DNA of 6,986 bases from a virus (taxonomy: Duplodnaviria; Heunggongvirae; Uroviricota; Caudoviricetes): positions 1 to 6,986 of IMG/VR virus record IMGVR_UViG_2690316285_000008; one strand, 5' to 3'. Each line of letters opens with the position of its first letter. The stretch's first letter is position 1. Positions 1-6,986 of this stretch are shown here, piece by piece. The notes under the pieces were generated by a model that did not search any database, had not been told where the DNA came from, and worked only from the letters and a program-made list of their open reading frames with translations. Both the position numbers and the translations under genes were made by a program.

Positions 1-437
1 GCCCATACCGGCGGCTTACCATCCGGATACTGGATCTTGTTTGTAAAAACCTCGCTTTCAATAAATTTTTTTCCGTGACAGCAGGGGCACTGTTTTTTGC
101 TCGCCGCGCTACGGGCATAATCTTCAAACGCATACGAAGCCATAATACGCATCACTGCCGGTTTTATTTCTGCCGGGAGTTTTCTTAACGCCGCCACGCG
201 ATCACACCGACTGAGTGCATATTCTGTCAGCAATTCTGTTGCCCGCTCTCTGTCATTCATACTAATGCCCATTTTCCCAAGGAACGCAGAAACCCCCATC
301 TCAGCCCGATTCTGTGTCATGCCCTGCGCGGCCATCACATCAGTGATACTCAGCGCATCTTTCGACGTTGAGGCCGATGCATCAGTCAGGCCGGGGGATT
401 TTGGGGAGTAGTATTTCGGTAAATCTTCCAGTTTCAT
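1..437 (-). CDS. Late-gene antitermination protein Q (lambda Q family), N-terminal ~145 codons; 3' end runs off the window start
   Basis: ATG at 437..435 overlaps the rusA stop (ATGA at 437..434) and the frame stays open to position 1. Translation begins MKLEDLPKYYSPKSPGLTDASASTSKDALSITDVMAAQGMTQNR, which parallels the lambda Q N-terminus as I recall it (MRLESVAKFHSPKSP...DVMAAMGMAQ). A CPCCHG zinc-finger-like motif follows near the window edge. Not in the ORF track because it is truncated. Confidence 0.75.
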   Translation of the reverse strand, partial: MKLEDLPKYYSPKSPGLTDASASTSKDALSITDVMAAQGMTQNRAEMGVSAFLGKMGISMNDRERATELLTEYALSRCDRVAALRKLPAEIKPAVMRIMASYAFEDYARSAASKKQCPCCHGKKFIESEVFTNKIQYPDGKPPVW

Positions 438-814
438 TTTTTGACCTGCTCTTCATGCATTATGGGGTAAATCTTCACCCCCAGACGTCCACCAGATACT
501 GGCTGACCACGAACGATATTGATTTCATCAAACTGCTCATCGTCCATTAGCAACCCCGCATGCGTCAGCGCATCCAGCGGCGCTTTCAGAATATTGTCCA
601 GGTCACGGCGGCGCTTATCCGGTGGTTCTGCAATAATTTTTATTGCCAACCTTCCGGACAGGCTTAATTTCAGCCGCTGCTGGCGAACAATAAGCGCCAC
701 TGCCCGGCGATAACGCTCCCCGGCTTTTGATACAAAATATGTGCTGCCACGACGACGCCAGTAAGTGTTCACCGTCGGCGGGTAAGGTAAAACAAATTCT
801 ATGCGCTCGGTCAT
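434..814 (-). CDS. rusA: RusA Holliday junction resolvase (crossover junction endodeoxyribonuclease)
   Basis: 126-aa ORF with ATG at 814..812. Carries the RusA hallmarks PYPPTVNTYWR and PPDKRRRDLDNILKAPLDAL. Sits immediately 5' of Q, as in lambdoid nin regions. Confidence 0.9.
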   Translation of the reverse strand: MTERIEFVLPYPPTVNTYWRRRGSTYFVSKAGERYRRAVALIVRQQRLKLSLSGRLAIKIIAEPPDKRRRDLDNILKAPLDALTHAGLLMDDEQFDEINIVRGQPVSGGRLGVKIYPIMHEEQVKK

Positions 815-1873
815 TTATGCTTTCCACTTCAGAACACCCGAATTTCTCGCGTGCATTAAAAAACGAATCAGCAACAACAGCTGACTGCCGTGTTTCTCTT
901 CAAAATCTTTTACTCCGGCATGTAGTTCGTTACGGCATTTACGGCATAACGGAATAACAAACAAATCATCAGCCTTTGTTCCCATCCCTCCCAGTCCATG
1001 ACCAATGATGTGATGCGGATCATCTGCCTGATTGCCACACGTCATGCATTTCTGCGTTTTTACCCAGCGCGTGTATACAGGCATCTCTTCCCGTTGTGAT
1101 TTCTGGCGCTGGAGATACTGAGCCGGTGACTCCGGATCAACGGCAATGCTGACCACCGTCTTTTCCTGTGGTGGGTTCTGTTGCTGGTGGACGTGAGGCA
1201 GTAACGCAATATTTTTTGTGCGCTGCTTCAGTATGCTGGTGGCTGTCTGCTCTCCCGGTATGATGTCGCTTTCACTGTACACAGAGCGAATTTTTTCCGC
1301 ACGCAACCCCAGCGAACGACGTAATACCGCTTCCGGTAGCGCGTCCGCCACCTGATTGCGGACCGCCCACCAGGATAATTCAGCCAGAGATAATTCACGC
1401 TCCTGCGTACCGCTTATTGCGTGACCGATGACGTCAATCATCCATGCTGACAGGTTTTGATGAGCAAGTTGCTCGAGTGATTCGGATGTCTGGTCACGCA
1501 GCTGGTTGTCGCAGTGCCAGCACAACACCATTGCGCCGGTACCATAACGGTGAATGACGGTTTCGCTGTGATGATAATCGCCGTGTGGCCACTGGCAGGA
1601 TTTAATATGGCGCAACAGCCAGTCAGACAATGCACCAGCACCACCAGCAGCACGAATCACCCGTGCGTTACTGAAAAACGGCAGCAATGTTTTGTCTTCC
1701 ACCAGCGGCTGGCGAGCGGCAGGAACGACCCCGGACGGCAGATTACGCATGCTTTTTGGTTCCGGCTCCACCAGTATTCTGCCGTTATGGAATGCTGACA
1801 TTGATTCACGGCCTGGCTTAACGATAACCAGACCGAGTTCCGGTACCAGAACAGGTCGAAGTAATACCCGCAC
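815..1873 (-). CDS. YdfU-like (DUF968-type) prophage protein with a C-terminal HNH-like zinc-finger motif
   Basis: 352-aa ORF whose stop TAA (817..815) directly abuts the rusA ATG. C-terminal region has CMTCG...DDPHHIIGHGLGG...VIPLCRKCRNELH (CxxC / HH / CxxC spacing typical of HNH nucleases). The listed start at 1873 is GTG; an in-frame ATG lies at 1801..1799. Size and position match ydfU of Qin. Confidence 0.7.
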   Translation of the reverse strand: MRVLLRPVLVPELGLVIVKPGRESMSAFHNGRILVEPEPKSMRNLPSGVVPAARQPLVEDKTLLPFFSNARVIRAAGGAGALSDWLLRHIKSCQWPHGDYHHSETVIHRYGTGAMVLCWHCDNQLRDQTSESLEQLAHQNLSAWMIDVIGHAISGTQERELSLAELSWWAVRNQVADALPEAVLRRSLGLRAEKIRSVYSESDIIPGEQTATSILKQRTKNIALLPHVHQQQNPPQEKTVVSIAVDPESPAQYLQRQKSQREEMPVYTRWVKTQKCMTCGNQADDPHHIIGHGLGGMGTKADDLFVIPLCRKCRNELHAGVKDFEEKHGSQLLLLIRFLMHARNSGVLKWKA

Positions 1874-1874
1874 A

Positions 1875-2153
1875 TTACCTCCAGATCCGTTGCTGGAATG
1901 TGCGGGACGGACGCGTTGGCCGTTCGGAGTAAGGGAGCCTGACGGAGATTATCCAGTGACGGTAGTCGAGGCTAAGGGCTTTTTTAACCTCGCATCCGCG
2001 CCTGCGGTAACACTGAATGAGCCATTCGGCCTGTTCTTCAGTGCATGGGGGATGCTGGTACCAATCAGATTTAAATGCGTGAGAGCGCCGCCCGTGCCTG
2101 CTGGCAAAGACGGCTGAATTATCAGAATTGTGTAGTCTGGAATTTTGCGCCAT
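1875..2153 (-). CDS. Hypothetical prophage protein (92 aa)
   Basis: ATG at 2153..2151 preceded by GGAG with a 7-nt spacer. Stop TAA (1877..1875) overlaps an ATG at 1875..1873 (TAATG). No recognisable family. Confidence 0.45.
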   Translation of the reverse strand: MAQNSRLHNSDNSAVFASRHGRRSHAFKSDWYQHPPCTEEQAEWLIQCYRRRGCEVKKALSLDYRHWIISVRLPYSERPTRPSRTFQQRIWR

Positions 2154-2219
2154 CGGCTTTCTCCGGTGGCACAGTGTTACTCAACAGGGGTTCAGCCCTG
2201 CGCTGAATTGTAGATGAAT

Positions 2220-2480
2220 TCACTCATCTTCAAAAGCAGAAAAACCAGCCTTAATCCCAGCTTCTTTCAGAGACGGCAACGATGTGACAAATTCATTTGC
2301 ACGCGAAATAAAACCATCCGTCACAAGCCCATCCACAAAATGAATTAACGCAGCTCCACTCTTCCTTTGTTGAGACTGTAAACATTTAATACGGCAGTGG
2401 CTGACAATAGCGCCATTCTCAACGCGCACAGTATAGAGGCCATCTTCACTAAAAATTTCACGTAATTCTTCGATTTTCAT
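2220..2480 (-). CDS. Hypothetical prophage protein (86 aa from the ATG; the track shows 87 aa from an upstream TTG)
   Basis: ATG at 2480..2478 preceded by GGAAGGA with an 8-nt spacer. The track start at 2483 is TTG. Positionally equivalent to rem of Qin, but the sequence is not recognised. Confidence 0.5.
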   Translation of the reverse strand: MKIEELREIFSEDGLYTVRVENGAIVSHCRIKCLQSQQRKSGAALIHFVDGLVTDGFISRANEFVTSLPSLKEAGIKAGFSAFEDE

Positions 2481-2555
2481 CAACAGAATCCTTCCAGATA
2501 AATAGCACTCCCCTGTTCGGGGTCCATCCCTCTTCTCCCTGCGCGCTACTTAAGT

Positions 2556-2592
2556 ATTTTTGATTCTATTCCGGCACCATCTAAAACTTCAA
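2556..2592 (-). promoter_or_regulatory. Candidate sigma70 promoter for the 86-aa gene and downstream operon
   Basis: On the minus strand TTGAAG (2592..2587), 18-nt spacer, TAGAAT (2568..2563), lying between the hok-1 terminator and the 86-aa gene. Motif match only. Confidence 0.25.
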
Positions 2593-2606
2593 ACGCGTTG
2601 AAAATA

Positions 2607-2631
2607 AAAACAAAAACCCGCCGAAGCGGGT
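2607..2631 (-). terminator. Intrinsic terminator at the 3' end of hok-1 mRNA
   Basis: Minus-strand hairpin CCCGC-UUCG-GCGGG (plus 2617..2630) followed by a U5 run (plus-strand A-run 2612..2616). Confidence 0.5.
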
Positions 2632-2700
2632 TAAGTGTGGGTGCATTGAGGATGCCTGACCCATCAGAGGTGGCGAGGGATTTCTCCCCCGCCTGGTCTC

Positions 2701-2856
2701 TTACTCCTCAGGTTCGTAAGCTGTGAAGACAGCGACCTCCGTCTGGCCGGTTCGAATTCGTACCTCGCAGAGGTCTTTCCTCGTTACCAGTGCCGTCACT
2801 ATGACGGTTAAACAGATGACGATCAGGGCGATTAACATCGCCTTTTGCTGCTTCAT
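2701..2856 (-). CDS. hokD: Hok-family type I toxin (51 aa), hok-1
   Basis: Translation MKQQKAMLIALIVICLTVIVTALVTRKDLCEVRIRTGQTEVAVFTAYEPEE from ATG 2856..2854, preceded by AGGAG with a 9-nt spacer. Matches my recollection of HokD/RelF and the Hok fold (TM helix then conserved Cys). It is the C-terminal part of the 70-aa ORF in the track. Confidence 0.85.
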   Translation of the reverse strand: MKQQKAMLIALIVICLTVIVTALVTRKDLCEVRIRTGQTEVAVFTAYEPEE

Positions 2857-2913
2857 AGCCTGCTTCTCCTTGCCTTTCGGCACGTAAGAGGCTAACCTAG
2901 ATTTGCCGTTCAT
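2701..2913 (-). CDS. Mok-like reading frame (70 aa), an in-frame N-terminal extension of hok-1
   Basis: ATG at 2913..2911 with GAGG 8 nt upstream; frame is continuous with hok (MNGKSRLASYVPKGKEKQA-MKQQ...), as I recall for chromosomal mok/hok pairs. Confidence 0.5.
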   Translation of the reverse strand: MNGKSRLASYVPKGKEKQAMKQQKAMLIALIVICLTVIVTALVTRKDLCEVRIRTGQTEVAVFTAYEPEE

Positions 2914-2978
2914 AGATTGAGCCTCAGATTAATGTTAAGCGTCTTGCCGGACGCGTAATGTTAACTGGGGCTTTTCTC
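2904..2978 (+). ncRNA. Candidate Sok antisense RNA for hok-1
   Basis: Plus-strand promoter-like TTGCCT (2870..2875), 17-nt spacer, TAACCT (2893..2898). Long imperfect hairpin with outer stem GCCUCAG (2921..2927) and CUGGGGC (2965..2971), followed by UUUUCUC (2972..2978). Antisense to the mok SD and start. Boundaries are approximate. Confidence 0.4.
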
Positions 2979-3026
2979 TATCTGCCTTTTGGTGTTCATG
3001 CCTGAGACAGATAGCCTCAAGCACCC

Positions 3027-3060
3027 GCTGCAATTCTACTTAACTCTCCTTTTCCCGCAA
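3027..3060 (-). promoter_or_regulatory. Candidate hok-1 mRNA promoter
   Basis: Minus strand TTGCGG (3060..3055), 16-nt spacer, TAGAAT (3038..3033), predicted start near 3026. The predicted 5' end GGUGCUUGAGG (plus 3015..3025) is complementary, with a 1-nt bulge, to a 3' element at plus 2640..2651, like the hok tac/fbi pairing. Confidence 0.4.
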
Positions 3061-3067
3061 ACCGTTT

Positions 3068-3151
3068 TTATCCCCAGCGGCAAATCGAATACACCACCAG
3101 CGCCACCGCCATCGCAATTCCTACCGTTGTTAATGCTTCAGGCCAGGTCAT
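3068..3151 (-). CDS. Small hydrophobic peptide, 27 aa ([27 protein letters not shown]), copy 1
   Basis: ATG at 3151..3149 overlaps the 114-aa gene stop (ATGA). GGAGGA lies 9 nt upstream. A second copy at 4601..4684 differs by 4 synonymous and 1 conservative change. Below the ORF-track length cut-off. Confidence 0.55.
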
Positions 3152-3492
3152 CGTAAAATATCCTCCACGCTTATCAGTCCGTTCCGCTCCAGATAACTCA
3201 TCGCCTTATCCGGTAATTTGCAGTCTGGCTTCGCTTTTCTCAGTTGCCAGGTTAACTGCTTTACCAGCATGGTTAACTCATCGACCAGACGCTGATATCC
3301 CACTGGTTTGTATTCATGCAATTTACCGGCTGGCTCTGCTGCCAGCGATACCAGTGCGATTTCCAGAACAGCAATATCCATCTTATATGTGCGGATGATG
3401 TCATGGTCGATTGTGCCCGGTATGCACAGTCTCTGTGCTTCAATAGTCTCCTCTGCGTGAGCTATTAACTGCTCTCTGGTAAAAGTCGTCAT
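3148..3492 (-). CDS. Hypothetical prophage protein, 114 aa (MTT-start paralog family)
   Basis: ATG at 3492..3490 overlaps the 55-aa gene stop (ATGA) inside a conserved 48-bp junction. N-terminus MTTFTREQL and a VSLAAEP segment are shared with the 55-aa and 221-aa proteins. Confidence 0.65.
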
Positions 3493-3897
3493 GCCGTAGC
3501 CCCTTCTTGATATTTTTCAAACCAGAACACAACCGGCTCTGCTTCCAGCGATGCCAGCGCAATCCGTGCCAGTTCCATTTGTTCACCACGGGTAAGCCCG
3601 TTTTCAAGCGGGTTTTTAATGAACAATTCAATACGTTCTTTGGTAATAGTGGTCATGTGTTACTCCTTAACCCGCAGTGCTTTCAACTGATGAGGGGAAC
3701 AAAATCTTTTCATCAAACCCTGCATTCATATCATGAACAGCAACACACCAATCCATCGACGAACGATTATCAAGAGCCTCCATGATTTCATCCATGCGGC
3801 GTAGGTCATACAGGTAAATGCTTTTATCGCCAATGGTGTAAAAGCCAATTTTTTTCGGTGATGGATGAGGTGTACTGGCAATAGCGGACACTACCAT
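3274..3897. repeat. Direct repeat U, copy 1 (identical to 6363..6986)
   Basis: Visual alignment shows identity over 623 bp at a constant offset of 3089 bp. The left boundary falls inside the 114-aa gene; the right boundary is limited by the window end. Confidence 0.85.
3489..3656 (-). CDS. Hypothetical small protein, 55 aa ([55 protein letters not shown])
   Basis: ATG at 3656..3654 with GGAG 6 nt upstream. Ends with the same 16 residues as the HNH protein because both 3' ends lie in the conserved junction. Not in the ORF track (under 60 aa). Identical copy at 6578..6745. Confidence 0.55.
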
Positions 3898-3936
3898 TTG
3901 TTCTTTTTTTAAGCAGCCATCTGATGAATCGGGCAT
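3667..3936 (-). CDS. Hypothetical prophage protein (89 aa from ATG 3936; 76 aa if ATG 3897 is used)
   Basis: Protein-like translation (...KKIGFYTIGDKSIYLYDLRRMDEIMEALDNRSSMDWCVAVHDMNAGFDEKILFPSS). Neither ATG has a clear SD. The track's 133-aa version starts at a GTG inside the hok-2 3' UTR and is probably over-extended. Confidence 0.45.
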   Translation of the reverse strand: MPDSSDGCLKKEQMVVSAIASTPHPSPKKIGFYTIGDKSIYLYDLRRMDEIMEALDNRSSMDWCVAVHDMNAGFDEKILFPSSVESTAG

Positions 3937-3978
3937 TATCTGAACATAAAACACTATCAATAAGTTGGAGTCATTACC

Positions 3979-4000
3979 AAAAAAACCGCCGAAACGGGTT
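3979..4000 (-). terminator. Weak terminator-like element at the 3' end of hok-2 mRNA
   Basis: Degenerate counterpart of the hok-1 terminator: short stem followed by a U7 run (plus-strand A-run 3979..3985). Confidence 0.3.
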
Positions 4001-4070
4001 AAGTGCGGGTGCGTTGAGGATGCCTGACACATCAAAGGTGGCGGGAGATTACTCTCCCGCCTGGTCACTC

Positions 4071-4226
4071 TTACTCTCTAGATTCGTAGTCTACGAAAAC
4101 AGCGACCTCCGTCTGGCCGATTCGGATTCGTACCTCGCAGAGGTCTTTCCTCGTTACCAGTGCCGTCACTATGACGGTTAAACAGATGACGATCAGGGCG
4201 ATTAACATCGCCTTTTGCTGCTTCAT
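4071..4226 (-). CDS. Hok-family type I toxin paralog (51 aa), hok-2
   Basis: Translation MKQQKAMLIALIVICLTVIVTALVTRKDLCEVRIRIGQTEVAVFVDYESRE from ATG 4226..4224. Identical to hok-1 through residue 34, diverged in the C-terminal tail. Confidence 0.8.
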   Translation of the reverse strand: MKQQKAMLIALIVICLTVIVTALVTRKDLCEVRIRIGQTEVAVFVDYESRE

Positions 4227-4283
4227 AGCCTGCTTCTCCTTGCCTTTCGGCACGTAAGAGGCTAACCTACATTTGTGAGACAT
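4071..4283 (-). CDS. Mok-like reading frame (70 aa), an in-frame extension of hok-2
   Basis: ATG at 4283..4281; N-terminus MSHKCRLASYVPKGKEKQA then hok in frame. Confidence 0.45.
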   Translation of the reverse strand: MSHKCRLASYVPKGKEKQAMKQQKAMLIALIVICLTVIVTALVTRKDLCEVRIRIGQTEVAVFVDYESRE

Positions 4284-4348
4284 AGATTGGGCCTCAGATT
4301 AATGTTAAGCGTCTTGCAGGACGCGTAATGTTAACTGGGGCTTTTCTC
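4274..4348 (+). ncRNA. Candidate Sok antisense RNA for hok-2
   Basis: Same architecture as sok-1, offset by 1370 bp: hairpin GCCUCAG (4291..4297) / CUGGGGC (4335..4341) followed by UUUUCUC (4342..4348). The 5' single-stranded tail differs from sok-1 at several positions. Confidence 0.4.
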
Positions 4349-4564
4349 TGTCTGCCTTACAGTGACATACCCGAGGCAGACAGCCTCAAGCACCCGCAGC
4401 AATCTTACCGACACCGATAAGAAAACGCTATTTTTTATTGCCAGCACCATCTATCCAGGCTAGTTTATCTGCGTCAGAACGGCGCAATGCGCTCGCCTGA
4501 GATACGTTTACTTGCCATGGTAACAACAGGTAACGGCAATTGCTGTTTCTGTTTTGTTTCCTTC

Positions 4565-4595
4565 AAAAACCCCGGACCATCAATCCGGGGTTTTT
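4565..4595. terminator. Bidirectional intrinsic terminator
   Basis: Perfect 6-bp GC stem CCCCGG (4570..4575) / CCGGGG (4585..4590) with a 9-nt loop, flanked by A5 (4565..4569) and T5 (4591..4595). Lies just 3' of the 27-aa gene copy 2. Confidence 0.65.
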
Positions 4596-4600
4596 GTTTG

Positions 4601-4684
4601 TTAACCCCAACGGCAAATCGAATACACCACCAGCGCCACCGCCATCGCAATTCCTACCGTGGTGAATGCCTCAGGCCAGGTCAT
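4601..4684 (-). CDS. Small hydrophobic peptide, 27 aa ([27 protein letters not shown]), copy 2
   Basis: ATG at 4684..4682 overlaps the DUF551-like gene stop (ATGA). AGGAGG lies 7 nt upstream. Followed by the terminator at 4565..4595. Confidence 0.55.
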   Translation of the reverse strand: MTWPEAFTTVGIAMAVALVVYSICRWG

Positions 4685-5046
4685 TGATTCACCTCCTGCG
4701 GTGGTTCCGGTAGCGGCATCCAGTGAGTTGAGCTCTCTACTTCAACGCCGTCTTTGTCCACAAAAGCCATCTTATTCCCGCCACGAGTGGGGCAAAAAAC
4801 CTTATCCCAGGAACCGGGGAATACATTCCCGAGATCATCGAGAAGAATCACATCGCAATATTCAGCAGGAACTGCATCACTACAGCTTATCCAGCCAGCC
4901 GGAGCTACCGGAGAGTTGCCAGCCTTACGCATGGCCATTTCCACGATTTCAACCATATCTCCTGGTGGAATTTTACAAAGTTGCCCAATACATTTCTGCT
5001 GCCTGGCATATTCGAGAATGTGCTCCAGTTTGGTTCGATTAATCAT
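4681..5046 (-). CDS. DUF551-like phage protein (121 aa)
   Basis: ATG at 5046..5044 overlaps the 221-aa gene stop (TAATG); GGGAG lies 7 nt upstream. C-terminal THWMPLPEPP and internal Trp/Gly pattern match my recollection of the DUF551 family. Confidence 0.65.
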   Translation of the reverse strand: MINRTKLEHILEYARQQKCIGQLCKIPPGDMVEIVEMAMRKAGNSPVAPAGWISCSDAVPAEYCDVILLDDLGNVFPGSWDKVFCPTRGGNKMAFVDKDGVEVESSTHWMPLPEPPQEVNQ

Positions 5047-5711
5047 TATTTATCTCCCTTAAGCATGGCAGCGCGGCAGGCGTTCCAGCCATCAACATAA
5101 TCAAACGTATTACTATCGTTTGGCCCGATTTCATCCGGCACTATCGGCTCTGGTTGGATAGTGACGTTGGCAAAGGCAGCACGCAAACCGGTTTTAATTT
5201 CTTCGATTTCATCAGAGCCAAGCGATGAATCTGACAGTGCGTGATGGAATGCGTAAGCCATGTCGTCGTTTACTGCAACCGGCACTGCCGGCGCTGCGTA
5301 AAGCGGTGTTATATCTGCCCGAAAATCACATGCTTTATGCAGTCGTACCCAACACTCAACTTCCGCTTTGTCAAAATATATAGCAGTGAACGTATTAGAT
5401 TCCTGGTCAACTTGAGTAAACGTCACCTTCCACGCTACAGCTACGGCTTTCCATCCATCAGGTTGTCGCATTCGCGGGGCAGCATAAAGCTCATGCATTC
5501 CATCAGGCAGCGAGTGACCCACATACTCACCGAACCCGTCAATACACATGCCCCCATCTTCAACAATGCATTCCGCTACAGGCTCTGCTTCCAGTGATGC
5601 CAGAGCGATAAGCGCCAGTTCACGAATTTCACCGCCGTCTATATCGTCAATATCATCGCGGCCAGAAATGTTAGCCAGCCATTGCAGTCGCTCTTTGGTA
5701 ATAGTGGTCAT
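5046..5711 (-). CDS. Hypothetical prophage protein, 221 aa (MTT-start paralog family)
   Basis: ATG at 5711..5709 overlaps the HNH stop (ATGA) in the conserved junction, with AAGGGG 7 nt upstream. N-terminus MTTITKERL and [12 protein letters not shown] are shared with the 55-aa protein. LYAAP occurs twice internally. Confidence 0.7.
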   Translation of the reverse strand: MTTITKERLQWLANISGRDDIDDIDGGEIRELALIALASLEAEPVAECIVEDGGMCIDGFGEYVGHSLPDGMHELYAAPRMRQPDGWKAVAVAWKVTFTQVDQESNTFTAIYFDKAEVECWVRLHKACDFRADITPLYAAPAVPVAVNDDMAYAFHHALSDSSLGSDEIEEIKTGLRAAFANVTIQPEPIVPDEIGPNDSNTFDYVDGWNACRAAMLKGDK

Positions 5712-6073
5712 GCCGTAGCCCCTTCTTGATATTTTTCAAACCAGAACACAACCGGGTCAGATTTCATTTCAACCAATCCCATACGAACCAGCGCTTTGCC
5801 TTTCCCGGACGCAAGGAATTCACGACGACCATCACTGATAATTCGTCGATAATCTTCCAGGCTACTGCAATGCTTGTGCAGATTGCATGGGTGGCATGCT
5901 GGTACCATGTTGGATATATCGTCACGTTCCTGGTGAAGCATATTTCCATCAAAACGAATGACCGGTTTTACATGGTCTGCATGCCACTTTTCGCCAAGTT
6001 CGCAGCCGCAATAAGCGCAGCGACCACCGAACTTCATGCGCAGTTCTGCACGTTGTTTTTTCGTCAGTGCCAT
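5708..6073 (-). CDS. HNH endonuclease (121 aa)
   Basis: ATG at 6073..6071 with AAGGAAAG 6 nt upstream. Motifs CAYCGC, HADHVKP, N...PACHPCNLHK fit the HNH zinc-finger nuclease pattern. The track's 151-aa version starts at a TTG. Confidence 0.85.
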   Translation of the reverse strand: MALTKKQRAELRMKFGGRCAYCGCELGEKWHADHVKPVIRFDGNMLHQERDDISNMVPACHPCNLHKHCSSLEDYRRIISDGRREFLASGKGKALVRMGLVEMKSDPVVFWFEKYQEGATA

Positions 6074-6074
6074 A

Positions 6075-6293
6075 TCAGCTTTCCTTATACGGATTAATTT
6101 TATTGTGCAGTGTGTTGAATGACGCCCATACCACGTCGTTATACAATTCAATAACTGGCTCAATTATTTTTCCGATTATCCAGACAAAAATTAGCGGGGA
6201 TATCGGTGTCATCAACACGATAAACAGAATGAGAAACAGGAATTCTGTTGTTCTACTCTTTCGCGGATATTTTTTTCTAAATAATGTAACCAT
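6075..6293 (-). CDS. Candidate small membrane protein (72 aa) in an AT-rich segment
   Basis: ATG at 6293..6291; Lys/Arg-rich N-terminus then a hydrophobic stretch FLFLILFIVLMTPISPLIFVWIIGKII. Stop is 1 nt before the HNH start. GC content of 6090..6300 is clearly lower than the surroundings, so chance hydrophobicity is possible. Confidence 0.4.
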   Translation of the reverse strand: MVTLFRKKYPRKSRTTEFLFLILFIVLMTPISPLIFVWIIGKIIEPVIELYNDVVWASFNTLHNKINPYKES

Positions 6294-6296
6294 TCA

Positions 6297-6581
6297 TTAC
6301 CGCCCTTTCGAGCGGTCTCCTGATGATTTGAGGGTGCAGAAATCCCTCCGGTTAAGGATTAATAACTCATCGACCAGACGCTGATATCCCACTGGTTTGT
6401 ATTCATGCAATTTACCGGCTGGCTCTGCTGCCAGCGATACCAGTGCGATTTCCAGAACAGCAATATCCATCTTATATGTGCGGATGATGTCATGGTCGAT
6501 TGTGCCCGGTATGCACAGTCTCTGTGCTTCAATAGTCTCCTCTGCGTGAGCTATTAACTGCTCTCTGGTAAAAGTCGTCAT
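6297..6581 (-). pseudogene. Truncated/chimeric copy of the 114-aa gene
   Basis: First 73 codons are identical to 3148..3492; identity ends at the repeat boundary (6363) and the frame runs 21 more codons into unrelated AT-rich DNA before TAA at 6299..6297. Confidence 0.5.
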
Positions 6582-6745
6582 GCCGTAGCCCCTTCTTGAT
6601 ATTTTTCAAACCAGAACACAACCGGCTCTGCTTCCAGCGATGCCAGCGCAATCCGTGCCAGTTCCATTTGTTCACCACGGGTAAGCCCGTTTTCAAGCGG
6701 GTTTTTAATGAACAATTCAATACGTTCTTTGGTAATAGTGGTCAT
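6578..6745 (-). CDS. Hypothetical small protein, 55 aa, identical second copy
   Basis: Lies in the exact repeat (offset 3089 bp from 3489..3656), with the same RBS and ATGA overlap. Confidence 0.5.
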
Positions 6746-6755
6746 GTGTTACTCC

Positions 6756-6986
6756 TTAACCCGCAGTGCTTTCAACTGATGAGGGGAACAAAATCTTTTC
6801 ATCAAACCCTGCATTCATATCATGAACAGCAACACACCAATCCATCGACGAACGATTATCAAGAGCCTCCATGATTTCATCCATGCGGCGTAGGTCATAC
6901 AGGTAAATGCTTTTATCGCCAATGGTGTAAAAGCCAATTTTTTTCGGTGATGGATGAGGTGTACTGGCAATAGCGGACACTACCAT
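6756..6986 (-). CDS. Second copy of the 89/76-aa hypothetical protein; 5' end may lie beyond the window
   Basis: Identical to 3667..3897. The window ends exactly on the ATG equivalent to 3897, so the equivalent of the 3936 start would be outside the window. Confidence 0.45.
   Translation of the reverse strand: MVVSAIASTPHPSPKKIGFYTIGDKSIYLYDLRRMDEIMEALDNRSSMDWCVAVHDMNAGFDEKILFPSSVESTAG

Follow-up and report, generated by a model that had tools for sequence, protein, structure and literature searches.

A 27-codon mosaic gene module of Escherichia and Shigella phages that probably encodes a membrane-associated early accessory peptide

Does an open reading frame (ORF) of only 27 codons, present twice in one stretch of phage DNA and just upstream of a hok/sok locus in one of those places, encode a functional peptide, and does that peptide belong to the hok/sok system or to the phage's own development? 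The question arises from a window (the whole stretch of DNA analyzed here) of 6,986 nt, positions 1–6,986 of record IMGVR_UViG_2690316285_000008, assigned to the Caudoviricetes. On balance, we favor the reading that the ORF is a conserved gene for a 27-residue hydrophobic peptide, that it travels as a mosaic module, and that its product is a membrane-associated early accessory peptide rather than a toxin of the Hok type.

Both copies of the ORF are present in the window on the minus strand, at the positions listed in Table 1, and the features reported for them in the original prediction were all found again: a strong Shine-Dalgarno (SD) sequence for each copy, an ATGA overlap with the preceding gene, and upstream partners that are unrelated to each other. 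Similarity between the copies spans ATG to stop, between unrelated flanks. Five of the 84 bases differ, as first described, and all five lie at codon position 3, four being synonymous and one giving the Leu/Phe substitution L7F; the chance that all five would fall at position 3 is (1/3)^5, or 0.4%. An independent repeat finder returned the same pair (3065–3151 and 4598–4684; 87 nt, 93%), which corresponds to the ORF plus 3 nt, as a repeat family of its own, separate from the hok/sok repeats.

Table 1. Positions of the two 27-codon ORFs and of adjoining features in the window
Feature	Position	Strand	Details
Copy 1, 27-codon ORF	3068..3151	minus	84 nt, stop TAA; exact peptide in public protein collection
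Copy 2, 27-codon ORF	4601..4684	minus	84 nt, stop TAA; exact peptide in public protein collection
Shine-Dalgarno GGAGGA, copy 1	3161..3166	minus	9-nt spacer to ATG; within last codons (…VEDILR*) of upstream gene
Shine-Dalgarno AGGAGG, copy 2	4692..4697	minus	7-nt spacer to ATG; within …PQEVNQ* codons of DUF551 gene
Upstream partner of copy 1, 114-aa protein	3148..3492	minus	no Pfam match; TGA stop overlaps ATG (ATGA)
Upstream partner of copy 2, 121-aa DUF551 protein	4681..5046	minus	Ea22-variant C-terminal domain family; PF04448, E 3e-19; ATGA overlap
Inferred hok promoter, locus 1	3033..3060	minus	TTGCGG-16 nt-TAGAAT; starts 8 nt after copy 1 stop; read from sequence
hok/sok locus 1	2612..3026	minus	mok-hok ORF 2701–2913; sok match 2851–3026; 3′ fold and terminator 2612–2701; separate repeat family
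hok/sok locus 2	3980..4395	minus	mok-hok ORF 4071–4283; sok match 4221–4395
Intrinsic bidirectional terminator hairpin	4564..4596	both	13-bp stem with A-run/T-run flanks; fold z = −3.5; 4 nt after copy 2 stop

We compared about 200 loci related to the ORF. A degenerate DNA pattern that fixed only the conserved residues, left 42 bases unconstrained and did not demand a stop codon retrieved 132 copies; these contained no internal stops in the 42 unconstrained bases, and 131 of the 132 had a stop after codon 27. At the unconstrained codons of these copies, site entropy was 0.41, 0.25, and 0.68 for codon positions 1, 2, and 3, respectively, and none of the 53 distinct 27-residue variants contains an internal stop. 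Searches with exact DNA anchors over only the 5′ third or only the 3′ third of the ORF, which avoid selection for an intact frame, recovered that frame in 121 of 125 and 144 of 154 copies, respectively. Among the exceptions were three kinds of deletion that kept the frame (6, 6, and 12 nt), two extensions through loss of the stop, and one start changed to GTG; the others were one truncation by recombination, one nonsense codon, and a 1-nt frameshift found in two loci. A broken frame within conserved DNA, named beforehand as the observation that would count against a gene, is thus rare: the 154 copies include one nonsense copy and one frameshift event (two loci), compared to four loci with in-frame deletions. 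A GGAG-type SD at 6–11 nt spacing occurs in 39 of 42 distinct upstream contexts, and in 149 of 159 copies the start overlaps the preceding gene, by ATGA or by 1 nt. Database variants contribute further changes, namely (GCGATG)n expansions that keep the frame and a small number of C-terminal frameshifts. Three alleles (P0078, P0085, and P0031) have GCGATG hexanucleotide expansions in frame (…GIAMAMAMAMAMAVAL…) or a 15-codon internal duplication, indicating that the middle of the helix tolerates lengthening and that the DNA there is prone to slippage.

A tblastn search, proposed as a check on the original prediction, found the frame in 95 phage records at 63–96% identity; carriers include 933W, VT1-Sakai and VT2-Sakai, BP-4795, Min27, ArgO145, and lytic Vequintavirinae. 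What we take to be the strongest test of selection on the 27-residue peptide is the comparison with one of the latter, the lytic rV5-like phage Av-05. For this pair, the proportion of synonymous differences (pS) was 0.60–0.70, the estimated synonymous divergence (dS) was 1.2–2.0, and the nonsynonymous divergence (dN) was 0.09–0.11, giving dN/dS of 0.04–0.09. Synonymous sites are therefore near saturation, and the 120 nt on each side of the ORF are no more alike than unrelated sequence. Because the peptide sequence has been kept between temperate lambdoid and lytic rV5-like phages at synonymous saturation, it appears to be the peptide itself that the phage needs. The general marks of protein coding are present, namely conserved start, SD, stop, and length, an excess of synonymous change, and indels that stay in frame. 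Thus, the purifying selection that the original prediction had read from two copies extends across the family, and the 27-codon ORF is very probably a real protein-coding gene.

The family has a fixed length of 27 residues and the consensus M-[T/S/N]-W-P-E-A-F-x-x-V-G-x-x-[M/I/L]-A-[V/A]-A-[L/F]-x-x-Y-S-[I/L/V]-[C/F]-R-W-[G/W/R]. In an alignment of 24 variants, 11 residues were invariant (M1, W3, P4, E5, A6, G11, A15, Y21, S22, R25, and W26) and two more nearly so (A17 and C24); E5, A6, Y21, S22, and W26 were still invariant over all 53 variants. Conservation is concentrated at both ends (WPEAF and YS-x-CRW) and at the small residues G11, A15, and A17 in the middle. The grand average of hydropathy (GRAVY) is ~1.1, and residues 6–24 form a 19-residue hydrophobic core rich in Ala, Val, Gly, and Thr, flanked by the conserved W3, R25, and W26. 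Under the positive-inside rule, the Trp residues at both ends, the Glu near the N-terminus, and the Arg near the C-terminus suggest a single-pass N-out/C-in topology. Taken together, these properties make it likely that the peptide is membrane associated. The single transmembrane helix proposed originally is plausible, but the helix is only marginally hydrophobic compared to that of Hok.

Several results weigh against the reading that we favor. First, a few copies (L180, L185, and L188) are disrupted, at a rate that fits ordinary prophage decay. Second, the ratio of nonsynonymous to synonymous polymorphism (pN/pS) within the lambdoid sample is only about 0.45 in the sense frame, and the divergent homologs that yield the low dN/dS were found by tblastn, which favors similarity at the protein level. 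Third, we had to reject pN/pS as a means of discriminating between strands: an antisense frame that shares the wobble positions is open in 90 of 91 variants and has a pN/pS of 0.44, compared to 0.47 for the sense frame, and this sharing leads one to expect equal ratios. Fourth, translation finds no direct support in the ribosome-profiling (RIBOseq) literature on enterohemorrhagic Escherichia coli (EHEC), and the peptide is in the supplements of neither EHEC RIBOseq paper (Sakai and EDL933); the Sakai survey covered only ORFs of at least 30 residues, so a 27-residue gene was left out by design. Fifth, a conserved helical face was rejected (power near 100 degrees, permutation p = 0.71), and the lack of alpha-helical periodicity leaves no positive evidence for a specific helix–helix interface. 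Finally, the summed apparent free energy of insertion is approximately −0.9 to +1.6 kcal/mol, compared to −4.7 for the Hok helix, on the scale reported by Hessa et al. 2005; with so marginal a value, membrane insertion is not assured.

The contexts in which the ORF occurs describe a gene-sized mosaic module. Similarity among the copies starts at the ribosome-binding site or the ATG and stops at the stop codon, and at least four classes of upstream tail combine freely with 19 classes of downstream sequence. The upstream genes are of the DUF551 type (…PPQEVNQ), the 114-aa type (…ISVEDILR; about 30 loci), or the 933W L0139 type (…NIEQEVNR), or, in Av-05, encode a 220-aa protein (…KKKGMNQ). As the SD sits in the last codons of the upstream gene, the module sets the final residues of the upstream protein. 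Directly downstream, a hok promoter is found in 67 of 159 copies (42%), an ORF leading to xis/int in 19, a hairpin with a convergent toxin–antitoxin pair in 15, and the same terminator as after copy 2 in 15 other loci; the remaining copies are followed by other hairpins or by another gene, and in about 30 copies a further gene comes directly after the ORF. Copy 1 itself matches ArgO145 in its upstream flank (0.99) and 933W in its downstream flank (0.96). DUF551 has been described as belonging to a set of portable C-terminal domains found among the Ea22 variants of phages that carry Shiga toxin (Stx) genes (PMC10834534), and on this basis the peptide gene appears typically to close an array of early genes of the Ea22/DUF551 type. 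In the VT1-Sakai class, an unannotated ORF (MFALIQRGQIYTDRAGYPVV…) with an AAGGAA motif begins 7 nt past the peptide stop (2588 onward in the VT1-Sakai locus, not the window), in a 400-nt gap before xis, and may be another missed gene.

The conserved-peptide reading implies the following mechanism. The module is a component of Escherichia and Shigella phages that shares its strand with Ea22-like, DUF551, and EaA-like early accessory genes and is usually the last or near-last cistron. With its own strong SD inside the final codons of the preceding gene and the ATGA overlap, it would be translated by ribosomes that end that gene and reinitiate, and this coupling would yield the peptide at any time of early-operon transcription, in infected cells or on induction of a prophage. 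The peptide would then lie as one helix in or on the inner membrane, in the orientation given above, and would contact a host or phage membrane protein during phage development, with no bulk damage to the membrane and outside the hok/sok system. That lytic rV5-like phages also carry the gene speaks for a function in phage development rather than in maintenance of the lysogen. Action on a specific membrane partner is a tentative proposal, one that we would sooner doubt than assert. Likewise rather unlikely as a whole is that the peptides are a new family of phage-encoded single-pass effectors, shared by Stx lambdoid and lytic rV5-like phages, made early and binding a specific inner-membrane protein of the host for the benefit of the phage. 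If such a family exists, it could alter transport, membrane energetics, superinfection, or the timing of lysis, and it would have been missed for 25 years in the reference annotations of medically important Stx phages.

The rival that survives best, which we nonetheless consider improbable, makes the peptide a small membrane toxin or a functional partner of hok/sok, such as a second killer or a modulator of Hok. The peptide is small and hydrophobic like type I toxins, hok/sok is the commonest of the downstream neighbors counted above, and the ORF–hok junction is kept across different upstream partners, including that in 933W. The original prediction had placed each copy just upstream of a hok promoter. 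This holds for copy 1, in which 42 nt separate the stop from the beginning of the Rfam sok/hok match (3026), but not for copy 2, which is ~200 nt upstream of the second match (4395) with the strong terminator at 4564–4596 between them; the promoter assigned to locus 1 was not flagged by a consensus promoter scan, and its position follows from the 5′ end of the Rfam match. Across the family, 58% of copies have no hok next to them and lie instead beside xis/int, convergent toxin–antitoxin pairs, or terminators, or in lytic rV5-like phages. Within the window, the ORF and hok belong to separate repeat families at different spacings, and in E. coli a query containing hok matched 10,668 records compared to 1,409 for the ORF query, so that most hok loci appear without the ORF.

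The peptide also differs from a type I toxin in its own properties. Neither copy matches the HOK_GEF profile (PF01848), even at E values up to 10, and no other toxin family matches. Such toxins are generally short, hydrophobic, and built around a single membrane helix; the peptide has 27 residues, 19 of them in a hydrophobic core, but its insertion free energy is near zero, unlike the strongly negative value of Hok. No type I antitoxin RNA was detected over the ORFs as an Rfam match, an opposing promoter-like site, or an antisense fold better than shuffled sequence. Type I toxins have their own promoter and a translation-restraining leader, whereas the ORF has a strong SD and overlaps the preceding gene. 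Its marginal hydrophobicity and its coupled translation under no such restraint are not what would be expected of a Hok-like killer. On the most economical view, the adjacency of ORF and hok is real but incidental, a link of position only: the ORF closes a transcription unit, and that end often collects hok cassettes and terminators along with other small insertions.

A second rival, very unlikely in our judgment, is that the 84-nt block is conserved as DNA, serving as a recombination 'linker' for the shuffling of lambdoid accessory genes, with the reading frame incidental. The block of homology does coincide with the mosaic junction, its upstream and downstream partners assort independently, and in the window it is duplicated between unrelated flanks. 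A DNA linker, however, would not focus change on third codon positions, keep the amino acids at synonymous saturation as in the Av-05 comparison, favor in-frame indels, or fix the positions of ATG, SD, and stop, and junctions at gene boundaries are the expected outcome of selection on functional genes. An equally slim chance attaches to a third rival, in which only the act of translation matters, for instance to bring ribosomes to the end of the operon or to modulate the terminator or read-through into hok, and the peptide has no function. The ORF is the terminal cistron in many contexts, and its stop falls very close to the terminator stem at copy 2 and to the inferred −35 element of hok at copy 1 (Table 1). 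Such a role would leave unexplained the 11 residues invariant among 24 variants, the five that persist over 53, the fixed length, and the conservation of amino acids despite saturated synonymous divergence; moreover, the downstream elements vary widely and are replaced by another gene in about 30 copies.

The last rival, a functional antisense ORF or small RNA on the opposite strand, is scarcely credible: it can point to the open antisense frame with its matching pN/pS and to a long antisense ORF annotated across the gene in phage Stx2 II, but that pN/pS is predicted by the shared wobble positions, the antisense frame has no conserved start or stop, usually lacks an ATG and differs in extent in nearly every context, its replacements are less conservative (mean BLOSUM62 score −0.45, compared to +0.26 for the sense frame), no promoter-like site, Rfam match, or better-than-shuffled fold was found on that strand, and the neighboring genes all lie on the sense strand. 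The conserved SD and overlap, the lack of conserved antisense start and stop codons, and the conservativeness of sense replacements identify the sense strand as coding. An RNA element was rejected because no Rfam family matched over the ORFs on either strand and the 84-nt block folded no better than shuffled sequence on either strand; the promoter scan found no promoter-like site facing the ORFs. The annotated antisense ORF in phage Stx2 II (NC_004914.3), ORF C38 (locus L209, 1001–1750, minus strand), is a 249-aa RefSeq call that covers the 27-codon gene together with the end of the gene upstream and the first part of mokW; it is probably spurious and hides the small gene.

As to the range of the gene, a 161-nt query matched 1404 of 5426 complete E. 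coli genomes, about a quarter. When one genome per species was searched with the conserved-residue pattern, only E. coli, Shigella flexneri, an Escherichia sp., and two tiny contigs contained it; these contigs, filed under Xanthomonas pisi (NZ_JPLE01000323.1, 431 bp) and Acinetobacter idrijaensis (JQCU01000559.1, 369 bp), most likely reflect contamination of those assemblies with E. coli or phage DNA. A large protein search with a natural 40-aa stop-loss variant gave 71 clusters with no informative name and no Pfam domain, which came from E. coli, Shigella, and E. albertii, the sole other source being one partial Salmonella entry. No homolog was found in phage lambda or in the K-12 prophages Rac, Qin, and DLP12.

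The claim that the gene is unannotated stands for RefSeq/PGAP genomes and for every phage record inspected (933W, VT1-Sakai, ArgO145, Av-05, Stx2 II, and vB_EcoS-666R9), but not for GenBank, in which the exact peptides are entered, one on 15 contigs and the other on 79, under names such as 'hypothetical', 'bacteriophage', or 'prophage' protein. Searches of Pfam, NCBIfam, PHROGs, and PADLOC returned nothing above threshold for either peptide, and the PADLOC-DB defense models matched neither the peptide nor its upstream partners. Full-text literature searches retrieved no description of the peptide or its sequence string, and a paper modeling the exo-xis region does not mention it. Among matches below threshold, we rejected KdpF (TIGR02115; 12.5–14.7 bits compared to a cutoff of 26.85, over 12 residues only and with no kdp genes nearby), the DUF883_C glycine-zipper region (PF19029; 14.0–14.5 bits compared to a gathering threshold of 27), and the PTR2 family, which scored far below threshold. 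PHROG 4612, a profile of 57 positions, matched weakly over positions 33–54 only (E 0.011–0.019, 16–17 bits). An apparent clustering of the peptide with DUF551 proteins was an artifact of partial gene calls at contig ends; the peptide sequence is absent from the DUF551 proteins.

Annotation systematically overlooks small hydrophobic proteins, and this 27-aa gene, omitted by RefSeq although it is present in 933W, VT1-Sakai, and VT2-Sakai, is worth adding to annotation models. The peptide is short enough for chemical synthesis and its gene can be knocked out with one stop codon, making it a tractable candidate for study of a phage–host membrane interaction. The module is also a clean example of a gene-sized mosaic unit whose ribosome-binding site dictates the last residues of the gene upstream.

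All genes of the window are on the minus strand. Read from right to left, they comprise Ea22-like modules with an 'ALASLEAEP' motif, DUF4014 and HNH genes, a 221-aa gene, the DUF551 gene, and copy 2; then the bidirectional terminator, hok/sok locus 2, a repeated block of Ea22-like genes, and the 114-aa gene; and then copy 1, hok/sok locus 1, two genes without a family match, DUF968, and RusA. A related RefSeq locus runs on into an antitermination protein on one side and into replication-type genes on the other. This gene content and those flanks identify the window as the accessory region that separates replication from Q in a lambdoid prophage. The arrangement recurs in none of the complete E. 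coli genomes of the collection, and only one of 210 loci has two copies of the ORF; the tandem layout is therefore a particular mosaic rather than a property of the family.

The two complete hok/sok loci lie 1.37 kb apart, which is unusually close for one phage, and are 88–93% identical to each other. Their Rfam sok scores are 112 (2612–3026) and 118 bits (3980–4395), and the two neighboring 70-aa ORFs match HOK_GEF with E values of 3e-23 and 2e-21. A weak isrK-like Rfam match at 2611–2692 on the minus strand (25.7 bits compared to a gathering score of 50) falls on the 3′ fold and terminator of the hok mRNA and is probably a structural resemblance only.

The Ea22-like block is duplicated at 3274–3573 and 6363–6662, with a 300-nt identical core and extensions to ~3148–3960 and 6297–6986, and contains genes of 76 or more and 55 aa together with the first 73 codons of the gene for the 114-aa protein. 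On the right-hand side, that gene has a different C-terminus (a 94-aa ORF, 6297–6581) and no 27-codon ORF after it, and the switch of C-terminus places a recombination breakpoint inside that gene. A 77-nt junction in which the 3′ end of one gene overlaps the start of the next (MTT[I/F]T[K/R]E…) occurs three times (3471–3547, 5690–5766, and 6560–6636), and an N-terminal 'MTTITKER…ALASLEAEP' module is common to at least four ORFs of the window. This pattern points to repeated recombination at an Ea22-type leader. The gene at 6075–6293 (minus strand), for a DUF4014 protein of 72 aa (E 1e-25), overlaps the HNH ORF in the latter's 5′ part; its product has a long hydrophobic stretch and is the second putative small membrane protein of this operon.

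How does the peptide compare with known systems? Lambda Kil, T4 Stp, and the single-gene lysis proteins of single-stranded RNA phages are phage-encoded peptides of very small size with a target in the host. They resemble the 27-residue peptide in size class, phage origin, likely expression during lytic development, and occurrence in a lytic lineage, but no sequence relationship was found and the resemblance is one of kind only. The Hok/Gef toxins (PF01848) are likewise small and prophage-borne with one predicted membrane helix, and they are frequent neighbors. Compared to them, the peptide has no sequence similarity or profile match, is about half as long and much less hydrophobic, shows no antisense RNA, lacks a mok-like leader, a long folded mRNA, and its own promoter, is translationally coupled to the gene upstream, and mostly occurs with no hok nearby.

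KdpF, AcrZ, CydX, and MgtS are examples of small E. coli inner-membrane proteins that bind larger ones. They share with the peptide a size below 50 residues, a single hydrophobic helix (predicted for the peptide) that has aromatic residues at the interface, cotranscription in an operon, and a history of being missed by annotation pipelines. In contrast to them, the peptide is phage encoded, has no homology to the class (the KdpF model scores below its cutoff), and has no membrane-protein gene as a constant neighbor. Small single-pass proteins of this class are reviewed in PMC12648545. In genomic setting, the likeness is to the exo-xis, ea, and nin early accessory genes of lambdoid phages, among them ea22, ea8.5, orf60a, orf61, and orf63 (PMC7093339, PMC8614690, PMC10834534). 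These are highly mosaic and occupy the same neighborhood and strand, and because the peptide gene directly follows Ea22-variant genes such as DUF551, it is presumably transcribed early as well; whereas the products studied in that region are soluble, the peptide is hydrophobic and absent from lambda. It thus belongs to a familiar kind, the small hydrophobic accessory proteins of phages that annotation has overlooked.

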